Sequence record: ON185589.1
DNA length: 46,060 nt
Reading direction: 5' to 3' (one strand)
Origin: Escherichia phage EC147
This document shows positions 40,319-46,060 of this stretch, in pieces (positions within the stretch are counted from its first letter, which is position 1; each line of letters begins with the position of its first letter). A program made the translations under genes and the position numbers. Below the pieces are notes generated by a model. That model did no database searches, was not told where the DNA came from, and saw only the letters and a list, made by a program, of their open reading frames with translations.

Positions 40319-40349
40319 TTTTAAATCCTCGTTCGTTGTCGATGCGCTT

Positions 40350-40394
40350 AATATACCAATCAGAGGCGCATCGGTTTTAACAAAAAGTGCTATT
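40350..40394 (-). promoter_or_regulatory. conserved element + N18 + TATATT
   Basis: minus-strand AATAGCACTTTTTGTTAAAAC + 18 nt + TATATT. Confidence 0.55.
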
Positions 40395-45002: not shown

Positions 45003-45011
45003 TTAAAATTG

Positions 45012-45058
45012 AATGCCTCATACAGCGAACAGGACGCATTTTGACGAGGCATTTTTTA
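45012..45058 (+). terminator. terminator-like hairpin
   Basis: AATGCCTC..GAGGCATT (8-bp stem, long loop) followed by TTTTTT. Confidence 0.45.
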
Positions 45059-45064
45059 GGTAAG

Positions 45065-45190
45065 GTGATTCACATAAAACCGTCGCAGTGGTGCGCACAG
45101 AAGCAAGAGGAAGCATTAGAACGCGGCGACACTGAAACGGCAATGCACTATTTCGAAATGTACAACTTGTGGAAGGGTAGAGGTCTGTAA
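45065..45190 (+). CDS. possible small protein (41 aa, GTG start)
   Basis: GTG after AGGTAA; stop overlaps ATG of next gene (TAATG); below ORF-track cutoff. Confidence 0.25.
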   Translation: MIHIKPSQWCAQKQEEALERGDTETAMHYFEMYNLWKGRGL

Positions 45191-45420
45191 TGTTTGGAAT
45201 GAACGAGACACAATTCAACGCTGCAAAACGCCAGGCCAAGAAGTGCGGCGAGGCAATGAAGGCGGATGTTGAAAAGCGCGGGAAGTATGTTGATGAAGTT
45301 ATGAAGGGCATTATTGCCGAACATTATCAGCCAGTTGCGCCAATGCTGACAATTACCCAATTCATCTGGTTGTGTGGTTATCTTCGTGGGCGATGGGGAA
45401 ACGCATTTGACCGCGAATGA
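45190..45420 (+). CDS. hypothetical protein
   Basis: 76 aa, RBS GGTAGAGG; preferred over overlapping minus-strand ORFs. Confidence 0.5.
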   Translation: MFGMNETQFNAAKRQAKKCGEAMKADVEKRGKYVDEVMKGIIAEHYQPVAPMLTITQFIWLCGYLRGRWGNAFDRE

Positions 45421-45449
45421 TTGACAACGATTTCCTGATTGGATAGCAT
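45421..45449 (+). promoter_or_regulatory. sigma70-like promoter (TTGACA-17-TAGCAT) at the start of a structured leader
   Basis: TTGACA at 45421-26 immediately after the upstream stop; 17-nt spacer; TAGCAT at 45444-49; near-palindrome GATTGGATAGCATATCAATC in the spacer/-10. Confidence 0.4.
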
Positions 45450-45510
45450 ATCAATCGTTTACATAAGAGCGGCTAAGGCCGAACGGGTGGCGCGGTTGCC
45501 ACGCAACAAC

Positions 45511-45552
45511 GGCGATATGCAGGTTTTTACCGTAAGACGTATCGCCTTTTTA
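45511..45552 (+). terminator. terminator / attenuator-like hairpin in the leader
   Basis: GGCGATA..TATCGCC followed by TTTTT, ending 13 nt before ATG 45565; contains a 12-codon mini-ORF (45517..45555). Confidence 0.45.
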
Positions 45553-45564
45553 TGAGGATAAAGA

Positions 45565-45747
45565 ATGAAGTGGAAAGTTATCCTTACCATACGGAAAATG
45601 GGCAGGAACTGCGCGACATGTAAACAAGAATTTGAAACAACTGTTACGGCATGTAGCGCCGAGATGGCAGTAAGACTGGCAAAAGATTACTCCGGAGCCA
45701 ATCAAGAAACGCACCAGTTTTCAGTTAATTTAGTGAGGAAAATATAA
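45565..45747 (+). CDS. hypothetical protein
   Basis: 60 aa, RBS GAGGA; basic; Cys pair CATC. Confidence 0.5.
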   Translation: MKWKVILTIRKMGRNCATCKQEFETTVTACSAEMAVRLAKDYSGANQETHQFSVNLVRKI

Positions 45748-45980
45748 TGTTAAACTTAATTTCTGCCTTTGTTGTTGGTTTTGTTTTTGCTGTAATTATT
45801 TTGCTTATAGCGTCGGAAAAGATTTGCAAATTTTTTGCTAAGAACGGGAAGTTTGCAAGCGCGACATGGAATAACAAGATGCAGCGATGGGATGTGCGCG
45901 GTCACTATCTGACGATTGGTAGCAAAATCCATCAGCATCTGAAGAATCAAGAAGATGAAAAAGTAAAATACAAGTGTTGA
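45747..45980 (+). CDS. hypothetical membrane protein
   Basis: 77 aa; N-terminal TMD LISAFVVGFVFAVIILLIA; RBS GAGGAAA; TAATG overlap with upstream gene. Confidence 0.5.
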   Translation: MLNLISAFVVGFVFAVIILLIASEKICKFFAKNGKFASATWNNKMQRWDVRGHYLTIGSKIHQHLKNQEDEKVKYKC

Positions 45981-45986
45981 ACAACT

Positions 45987-46011
45987 ACCCGCCAAATGGC
46001 GGGTTTTTTAT
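45987..46011 (+). terminator. rho-independent terminator
   Basis: ACCCGCC-AAAT-GGCGGGT followed by TTTTTT; then TATAAT and AAGGAGG at the window edge point to a gene starting just past 46060. Confidence 0.65.
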
Positions 46012-46060
46012 TGCCTGCAATTTGTCTATAATGATGCTTTGTTATAAAGGAGGGCGCATT

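Follow-up and report, generated by a model that had tools for sequence, protein, structure and literature searches.

We analysed a stretch of 46,060 nucleotides (nt) from Escherichia phage EC147 (sequence record ON185589.1; the whole stretch is called the window here) and found that a segment close to its end, positions 45457–45551, very probably specifies a conserved, structured, non-coding RNA unit that lies behind a candidate sigma-70 promoter. Comparison with homologues shows this RNA to be non-coding, structured, strand-specific, fixed in position and more constrained than its neighbours, and it belongs to an RNA family conserved in T1-like phages that is undescribed, having been left unannotated or mis-annotated as small proteins until now. 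For its function we favour, at a probability of roughly 45%, an autonomous sigma-70 transcription unit whose default product would be a terminated small RNA and which would also serve as the leader of the downstream genes, including the mechanism that is set out below. Decisive for the reality of the features was comparison, that is, conserved geometry together with compensatory base changes.

A first alignment of nine phages from three genera contained compensatory changes in two hairpins (H2 and H3), an invariant −35 hexamer and insertions or deletions (indels) that leave no reading frame intact. Relatives were added by a pattern scan of viral contigs, and when 21 distinct sequences were aligned with MAFFT, without fitting to a structure, H2 and H3 were 100% paired with nine pairs changed on both sides, compared with 26–53% pairing and 0–3 double-changed pairs in a control in which the pairing partners were slid by 1–3 columns; RNAalifold, run unaided on this alignment, returned the same helices. 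A covariance model was built from the 21-sequence alignment, and 48 distinct sequences spanning Tempevirinae, Tunavirus (T1) and Kyungwonvirus (CS01) were aligned to it. In this larger set 17 of 20 base pairs covary and 97% of cells are paired, against 27–52% when slid, and RNAalifold recovers H1, a third hairpin at the 5′ side, and H2, with eight of nine pairs covarying. All four pairs of H1 are changed on both sides and 96% of its cells are paired, and at least seven different stem sequences occupy one position (CGGC, GCUC, GCGC, CCAC, GCCC, GCGG and UGUG). H2 is 100% paired with compensatory changes in four of its five pairs, and seven of the nine outer pairs of H3 covary (five of nine on the unfitted alignment). 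Because the U–G and G–U pairs in H3 would be A–C mismatches on the other strand, the plus strand is fixed as the strand that folds. Moreover, between the window and phage JohannLBurckhardt the RNA is 79% identical, whereas three neighbouring genes are 58–64% identical.

The minimum-energy fold of 45457–45551 consists of a free 13-nt 5′ tail followed by the three hairpins (−32.8 kcal/mol); the fold of the 121-nt region has z = −2.96, with 2 of 200 shuffles equally good, and H3 alone folds at −15 kcal/mol with z = −4.4 and none of 200 shuffles as good. The 5′ tail is the best-conserved unpaired segment, with the consensus GUnnACAnAmGAG in most lineages and a shortened form, GUAGAC, in Rogunavirus AHP24. 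The loop consensus of H2 is retained in T1, TLS, CS01 and Rtp, the GUAAGAC motif of H3 is also present in an H3-like hairpin of Rtp-type phages, and some lineages carry an extra covarying hairpin within the H3 interior. Helices that would close the structure or form a pseudoknot (the 5′ tail with the GUAAGAC loop, the 5′ CGU with the AACG linker, the 5′ tail with the U-tract) were inspected and rejected, being confined to a single lineage or trivially U-rich, and uncompensated. A small palindromic hairpin, (A/U)UUGC-N3-GCAA(A/U), is inserted at varying points of the 3′ half in several lineages, within the interior of H3 in Warwickvirus and, in TLS, past H2 and ahead of the last hairpin (loci L003, ~725–745; L008; L045, ~1845–1860; L066), and it shows compensatory changes of its own from UUGC/GCAA to UCGC/GCGA.

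Taken alone, the promoter match is no better than chance, since a scan found seven promoter-like sites in a 3-kb region against 5.5 expected, and TTGAC-N18-TAnnnT occurs once in the window, at this promoter, against 1.7 expected. We compared 60 distinct homologous promoters, collected with a search pattern that required TTG[AC][CA]N and TAnnnT. The −35 element is TTGACn in 56 of them (TTGCAT in the Rtp type), the two hexamers are 17 nt apart in 52 and 18 nt apart in 8, and eleven different −10 hexamers occur, variable in their middle positions. A conserved pyrimidine–G step lies 7 nt past the −10 in 54 promoters and 6–7 nt past it in 59. Since T1, A2 and T6 of the −10 were prescribed by that pattern, independent support comes from the consistent geometry and spacing, which are what would be expected of a working sigma-70 promoter that starts at G45457; an RNA from this start to the end of the U-tract would be 95 nt long. 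No conserved nAnnnT hexamer was read from the alignments in the first 20 transcribed bases. An inverted repeat brackets the spacer octamer and the −10 of the window, and several lineages have inverted repeats of other sequence in this place, as does a second site in the window (40363, minus strand); T1 and XY3 have none, and folded as RNA the repeat is weak (z = −1.05). The re-annotation paper on phage TLS gives three sigma-70 promoters, among which the orthologue of this promoter is not included.

We collected 80 loci via the downstream 60-amino-acid (aa) protein, and all 80, from across Drexlerviridae, carry the promoter, the 5′ tail and H1. They comprise 48 matches to the covariance model, which finds one copy per genome and clear matches in JohannLBurckhardt, CS01, T1 and TLS, 27 loci of a short Webervirus form and five loci of Rogunavirinae. 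The short Webervirus form consists of promoter, GUAGACACAAGAG, H1 and a GC hairpin that may or may not be followed by a U-tract, and H2 is absent; the five Rogunavirinae loci have the promoter, tail, H1, AACG and H2, with a gene for an arginine transfer RNA (tRNA-Arg) further downstream, so that the slot behind this promoter can hold another RNA gene. Family-wide the element precedes the same 60-aa and 77-aa genes; in many lineages inserted, unrelated genes separate the RNA from the 60-aa gene, always on the 3′ side of the RNA, and in Rtp-like and CS01 phages the element precedes 300–500 nt of untranslated RNA that includes a tRNA. Its retention at one place in all sampled T1-like lineages argues for a real functional RNA. 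In the Rogunavirinae, the tRNA-Arg (anticodon UCU or CCU) lies 150–300 nt past the 5′ domain and ahead of the 60-aa gene (locus L049, 2214–2289; loci L089, L092, L100 and L107, the last being Rtp, ~1200–1480).

The 3′ end varies more. H3 and the five U resemble an intrinsic terminator in that a GC-rich stem directly abuts a U run, and depart from one in the loop: instead of the compact 3–8 nt, H3 has a 22-nt interior with a sub-hairpin and a 6-nt asymmetric loop, which exceeds the loop rule of the terminator scan and is the reason that the scan did not call it. Similarity to many relatives stops exactly at the last T (45551), with different genes beyond. Hanriver-, Warwick- and Henuseptimavirus have a U-tract, as do some Webervirus, and it is degenerate in several Tempevirinae; in lineages without it the last hairpin, still with CCGUAA, is followed by the Shine–Dalgarno sequence or by further untranslated RNA. 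When the 3′ arm of H3 is blocked in the fold, an alternative structure forms that is 7 kcal/mol weaker, uses unconserved segments and shows no covariation. The H2 loop was tried as an antiterminator and rejected; pairing of this loop to the 3′ arm of H3 is feasible for the window and XY3 and not for the Samwise or L021 types. The features and their positions are collected in Table 1.

Table 1. Features of the RNA unit and of its surroundings, with positions in the window
Feature	Position	Strand	Remark
Upstream 76-aa gene	open reading frame (ORF) 45190–45420	+	TGA stop 45418–45420; −35 abuts the stop
−35 hexamer TTGACA	45421–45426	+	directly adjoins the TGA stop of the 76-aa gene
Inverted repeat AACGATT / AATCGTT	45426–45432 / 45453–45459	+	brackets octamer and −10
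Octamer CTGATTGG in promoter spacer	45435–45442	+	CTGAnnGG in 59 of 60 homologous promoters
−10 hexamer TAGCAT	45444–45449	+	17-nt spacer from −35; 10/12 match in promoter scan
Predicted transcription start	G45457 (±2)	+	placed by the conserved pyrimidine–G step
Single-stranded 5′ tail GUUUACAUAAGAG	45457–45469	+	unpaired in the minimum-energy fold
H1, CGGC-UAAG-GCCG	45470–45481	+	missed in the preliminary description
Linker AACGG	45482–45486	+	AACG nearly invariant; AAAG in TLS type
H2, GUGGC-GCGGUU-GCCAC	45487–45502	+	loop form RCGnUn
Linker GCAACAAC	45503–45510	+	A-R-N-like repeats; conserved within Tempevirinae
H3 outer stem	45511–45519 with 45538–45546	+	base GGCG/CGCC; GGCGATA(TG)...(CG)TATCGCC
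Mini-ORF MQVFTVRRIAFL, 12 codons	ATG 45517 to TGA 45555	+	judged a chance ORF; ATG inside the H3 stem, without Shine–Dalgarno sequence
H3 inner stem	45522–45524 with 45529–45531	+	
Conserved unpaired GUAAGA in H3	45532–45537	+	
U-tract T5	45547–45551	+	with H3, an intrinsic-terminator-like 3′ end
Ribosome-binding site (RBS) GAGGA	45553–45557	+	begins 2 nt past the T-tract; ATG of the next gene at 45565
60-aa CxxC protein gene	45565–45747	+	T1 homologue ST56
77-aa membrane protein gene	45747–45980	+	T1 homologue ST55; DUF7299
Canonical intrinsic terminator closing the small operon	45987–46009	+	−13.8 kcal/mol; just 5′ of terS

A preliminary description of this region had placed in it a promoter after the upstream stop (TTGACA, 17-nt spacer, TAGCAT), a GTGGC-GCGGTT-GCCAC hairpin, a terminator hairpin followed by TTTTT and a 12-codon ORF overlapping that terminator, and all of these are present (45421–45449, 45487–45502, 45511–45551 and 45517–45555, the last encoding MQVFTVRRIAFL). 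It had called the region a leader ahead of the last two genes, and the same 60-aa and 77-aa genes are indeed found downstream throughout the family. Its distance of 13 nt between the terminator and the RBS has to be corrected: counted from the end of the T-tract, 13 nt is the distance to the ATG (45565), and the RBS is 2 nt away.

In the reading that we favour, host sigma-70 RNA polymerase (RNAP) would initiate at TTGACA-17-TAGCAT, the nascent RNA would present its 13-nt single-stranded tail and then fold into H1, H2 and H3, and in this lineage H3 and U5 would stop most transcripts at about 45551, giving a free RNA of ~95 nt. In read-through transcripts the structure would form the 5′ leader for the 60-aa and 77-aa genes, and these transcripts would end at 45987–46009. 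The unit would be a small-RNA gene and a terminator-attenuated leader at once, the mini-ORF having no role. The 5′ two-thirds of the RNA (tail, H1, AACG linker and H2 with its loop) would bind a protein, or RNAP on its own transcript, and the action of this domain would bear on transcription elongation or termination or on the fate of the RNA. Because the 5′ domain is kept where the terminator is missing, the function shared by the family cannot depend on the release of a small RNA and is most likely exerted by that domain; control of one particular RBS is unlikely, since different lineages have different genes next to the RNA, in some even a tRNA. A role of the released RNA in trans may be an addition in this lineage.

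Several results weigh against this dual reading. H3 is atypical as a terminator, with its 22-nt interior and five U and its escape from the consensus scan. The last hairpin is without a U-tract in T1, TLS, several other Tempevirinae and Rtp-like phages, and in these the RNA continues into the next gene or a tRNA; a free small RNA thus cannot be the family-wide product. No conserved antiterminator pairing exclusive with H3 was found, and a search for base-pairing targets of the 5′ tail or of GUAAGAC, on both strands of the window and in the operon of each lineage, gave chance-level duplexes with no shared position. The start site, the 3′ end and the efficiency of termination are themselves predictions from sequence. 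Finally, the 48-sequence alignment was fitted to the model and favours its structure, and the unfitted alignment covers fewer lineages.

We rank this dual reading first, a dedicated trans-acting small RNA second and antitermination of the put, nut or Q kind third. The trans-acting RNA would be the 95-nt product, acting early in infection on host or phage messenger RNAs (mRNAs), with Hfq or ProQ attached to its A-R-N-like linkers and U-tail, through the GUUUACAUAAGAG tail as seed or through its loops as a protein sponge. It would have its own strong sigma-70-type promoter, a terminator and a typical size, its 5′ tail is conserved and unpaired, the module ends at the U-tract with varying neighbours beyond, and the linker CAACAAC and the U-tail look as though they could bind Hfq. 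A precedent is StxS in Stx phages, where a transcript terminated close to its promoter acts in trans. We nevertheless consider this unlikely, because the promoter and U-tailed terminator typical of Hfq-dependent small RNAs, both present in sequence here, do not occur together in the T1, TLS and Rtp-type orthologues, which have no terminator; moreover, a conserved H2 loop and AACG linker are unusual for RNAs that act purely by base pairing, and no phage target rises above chance complementarity or is conserved across lineages. In processive antitermination, as at HK022 put, lambda nut or the PR′-qut-tR′ arrangement, RNAP modified by the 5′ domain, with or without the help of a phage or host protein, would pass H3 and the operon and late terminators, and unmodified RNAP would stop at H3 and yield the short RNA. 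The element is always promoter-proximal with inserted genes always downstream, the 5′ domain rather than the terminator is the part that the family conserves, terS follows on the same strand ~640 nt downstream, the late operon of T1 has more than 10 intrinsic terminators annotated in its record, the 300–500 nt of untranslated RNA with a tRNA in Rtp-like and CS01 phages would need protection from termination, and a near-invariant site stands in the promoter spacer as the Q-binding element does in lambda. We hold it to be improbable all the same, as terS has a conserved −10 of its own right after the operon terminator, so that the late genes need not depend on read-through, and a strong constitutive promoter with built-in antitermination would switch them on at once. 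Further, neither annotation nor searches showed a gene or RNA related to Q, N or put, a clear −10-like pause element is missing from the initial transcribed region, and H1 and H2 are short and simple, unlike the long bulged stems of put (PMC9378689). A bolder form, likewise improbable, is that the 5′ domain represents a new class of promoter-proximal RNA that reprograms host RNAP, alone or with a small phage protein, and, as the T1-family equivalent of put or nut, carries transcription past H3, the operon terminator and a dozen or more late terminators, the CTGAYYGG site serving as a timing switch via a phage factor; if true, such an RNA would explain the terminator-studded late transcription of T1-like phages.

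A plain structured 5′ untranslated region with a leaky insulator would require less: the promoter would serve the 60-aa and 77-aa genes only, the hairpins would stabilise or tune their mRNA, and the U-tract would be a partial terminator devoid of any regulatory or trans role. The conserved place upstream of the same two genes fits this, lineages without a U-tract show use as a leader, and the H1 part in Webervirus can pair with the Shine–Dalgarno and start region of the 60-aa gene. The chance of it is slim, however, given that unrelated genes or a tRNA are inserted before the 60-aa gene in many lineages, that an unpaired 13-nt 5′ end is the opposite of a 5′ stabiliser, and that conserved loop and linker sequences point to specific recognition. 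Hardly credible are attenuation by translation of the mini-ORF, offered in the preliminary description as the alternative to a ~95-nt small RNA, and a genuine small protein such as the 35-aa bas07_0089 of JakobBernoulli. ORFs do exist in the window, the mini-ORF overlaps the terminator stem and the record of a relative annotates a coding sequence (CDS) here; against this, the mini-ORF occurs in one of 27 distinct homologue types that keep H3 (that of the window and JakobBernoulli), most types lack its start codon or have it elsewhere, a loop or T-tract longer or shorter by a single base is enough to displace or destroy it, and indels of 1–2 nt in loops and T-tract break every frame. It has no Shine–Dalgarno sequence, and the substitutions compensate for the stems. 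Leader-peptide attenuation of the trp type, which calls for a conserved leader ORF, is rejected since neither the mini-ORF nor the 35-aa CDS is conserved. The ATG of bas07_0089 arises from one A-to-G change in the discriminator by the −10, where the window has ATA, and indels, missing starts and compensatory substitutions rule out the 35/38-aa ORF as a gene. A small protein gene as annotated in JakobBernoulli, G29-2 and SFP17 was likewise dismissed, because the frames differ between phages that are >95% identical; the long N-terminal extensions in G29-2 and SFP17 result from one extra T in the U-tract. A CDS annotated across the RNA, or a downstream N-terminus run through the terminator (LPRNNGDMQVFTVRRIAFF...), is very likely an annotation artefact (the CDS coordinates are L002 2972–3079 for bas07_0089, L001 3055–3357 for G29-2 and L004 710–1021 for SFP17). 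From the earlier interpretation the small RNA of ~95 nt is therefore retained, in line with the conserved promoter geometry, the covarying helices and the G–U asymmetry, and the attenuation through the mini-ORF is dropped, on the count of one homologue type in 27.

The octamer in the promoter spacer is a repeated site. CTGATTGG has 17 copies in the window against 1.5 expected, a number that none of 100 shuffles reached, at 1745, 5133, 6701, 8939(−), 15453, 16276(−), 20418(−), 22726, 26071(−), 29097, 30760, 33085, 37543(−), 38684, 40363(−), 42267(−) and 45435; these lie on both strands and mostly within genes, at a Chi-like density of ~1 per 2.7 kb. JakobBernoulli has 16 copies of the octamer, and T1 has CTGACTGG 15 times, CTGATTGG 11 times and CTGAGCGG seven times; no literature on CTGATTGG was found. 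As its distance to the −35 and −10 varies between lineages, the octamer behaves as an overlapping binding site and not as a core promoter element. A second copy of the promoter arrangement lies at 40330–40393 on the minus strand (CGATGCGC, 2 nt, CTGATTGG, TATATT, 2 nt, GCGCATCG), 11 nt past a 21-nt repeat and ~35 nt before an ATG, and T1 has a similar site at 2860 (GGGGAT ... CTGACTGG TATAAT CCCC). The repetition of the arrangement in the window suggests that the promoter may be controlled by whatever recognises the octamer. A 21-nt direct repeat, ATAGCACnnnTTGnTAAAA, has been reported for phage TLS with no assigned function. This TLS-type repeat has 19 copies in the window against 2.6 expected, oriented in gene direction (for example 28430, 30954, 31995, 41717, 42180, 43177 and 44173 on the plus strand and 35260, 37427, 38103, 39502 and 40393 on the minus strand). 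Most copies have a −10-like hexamer (CATAAT, TATAAT or TATAGT) ~19 nt downstream, and many have a short variable inverted repeat in between, such as CCAGG-N7-CCTGG; with these elements the repeats resemble a class of promoters specific to the phage.

Over its last 2 kb the window shares 95–98% identity with Escherichia phages from Hanrivervirus (a genus of Drexlerviridae, Tempevirinae; for example JakobBernoulli, also called Bas07, and G29-2), in whose genomes the region is the tail end of a same-strand block of small genes directly 5′ of terS; the window ends just short of the terS start codon. About 20 records numbered MG0656xx and named Campylobacter phage (host Campylobacter jejuni) are 96–97% identical over the region, and their host label is doubtful. 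The upstream 76-aa gene has matches in 834 phage records, essentially all from Drexlerviridae, and homologues of the 60-aa and 77-aa proteins occur in T1 (ST56 and ST55), TLS, CS01, Webervirus and Rogunavirus. PHROG and Pfam scans of the neighbouring small proteins returned only families without known function, the 60-aa/77-aa pair matching PHROG 2919 and DUF7299. The operon terminator is kept in T1, TLS, CS01 and Webervirus. Directly past it the window has a conserved TTTTTTATTGCCTGCAATTTGTCTATAAT (46004–46060), whose −10 (TATAAT, TATACT or TAAAAT) is kept in the same four, as is a CCTGCAAT block; 46004–46060 is probably the terS or late promoter, with a T-run in the −35 position. Upstream, past a 104-aa gene, 45011–45057 forms another terminator-like hairpin with a long interior (AAUGCCUC-27 nt-GAGGCAUU-U6; −12.9 kcal/mol, z = −2.8), which, like H3, went unreported in the consensus scan owing to the size of the loop.

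Searches for known elements were negative. At gathering thresholds Rfam 15 had no match in the window, and with E up to 10 it gave one chance match, to rox1; on nine relatives it found nothing except the Rogunavirus tRNA. ARAGORN found no tRNA or transfer-messenger RNA in the window. The element has no copy in 5,426 E. coli genomes, and in species-representative bacterial genomes there were sixteen pattern matches, all by chance, and no match to the covariance model. We found no small RNA, transcriptome or description of this promoter in the literature on Drexlerviridae, and no antiterminator of the Q family is annotated in the complete JakobBernoulli and T1 records, a search at the level of annotation that was not exhaustive. 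RfaH ops sites, k-turns, CsrA GGA motifs, mimicry of CRISPR (clustered regularly interspaced short palindromic repeat) repeats and sites for IHF were sought by eye, and none is conserved. The lambda boxA octamer CGCTCTTA is present on the minus strand of 45461–45468, within the complement of the 5′ tail (45457–45474, GCCGCTCTTATGTAAAC); we dismissed it as a probable coincidence, being on the unfolded strand and unconserved in T1 and Webervirus.

T1-like phages are classic models and are common in collections for therapy and for screening of defence systems (BASEL), and their transcription programme is almost unknown. To our knowledge they encode no RNAP or sigma factor. Should the RNA act in trans, it would represent a small RNA conserved across a family of strictly virulent phages; the unmodified host polymerase would make it, so that its synthesis could plausibly begin in the first minutes of infection. 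Should it act on RNAP in cis, it would amount to a new device for antitermination or attenuation. In addition, it is an easily mutated handle on gene regulation in T1-like phages, and it corrects several deposited genome annotations.

The unit may be compared with several known systems; to lambda PR′-tR′, HK022 put and enterobacterial small RNAs with 5′ seeds it is similar solely in layout. As in riboswitch and attenuator leaders, the 5′ domain is conserved and the part 3′ of it differs by lineage, being either a terminator or a plain hairpin by the Shine–Dalgarno sequence; unlike in these, no Rfam aptamer matches, neither a ligand, a switch helix nor mutually exclusive pairing was found, and the gene directly downstream varies. 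It is a structured phage RNA like the T4 species 1 and 2 RNAs, and its 5′ domain in Rogunavirinae would be co-transcribed with tRNA-Arg, whereas the window has no tRNA and no sequence relation to those RNAs is known. With enterobacterial Hfq-dependent RNAs that have 5′-terminal seeds (RybB and MicC type), and with phage small RNAs such as lambda OOP and P22 Sar, it shares a length of ~80–100 nt, its own promoter, a Rho-independent terminator and a conserved unpaired 5′ end; it differs from them in that no target was identified, it is antisense to no gene, its loops and linkers are conserved, and the orthologues in T1, TLS and Rtp have no terminator. The put RNAs of HK022 are cis-encoded, ~70 nt long and made of two long bulged stem-loops with a triplex (PMC9378689). 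Compared by description only, they resemble our unit as promoter-proximal structured RNAs with hairpins in phage operons rich in terminators, and differ in that H1 and H2 are simple hairpins of 4–5 base pairs, there is no evident homology, and action on RNAP is purely hypothetical here, whereas put RNAs make RNAP resistant to terminators through the beta′ zinc-binding domain. Lambda PR′-tR′ (6S RNA) and its Stx-phage counterpart StxS combine a constitutive sigma-70 promoter with a terminator within 100–200 nt, giving a short RNA by default and longer transcripts by read-through. Our unit departs from them in that no Q homologue, qut pause signal or sequence similarity was found, two small genes and another terminator lie downstream, terS has its own −10, and the RNA body is under strong structural selection. 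What it would have in common with them, in sequence layout, is a sigma-70 promoter, a short terminated transcript, phage genes downstream on the same strand and a conserved DNA site between the −35 and the −10.

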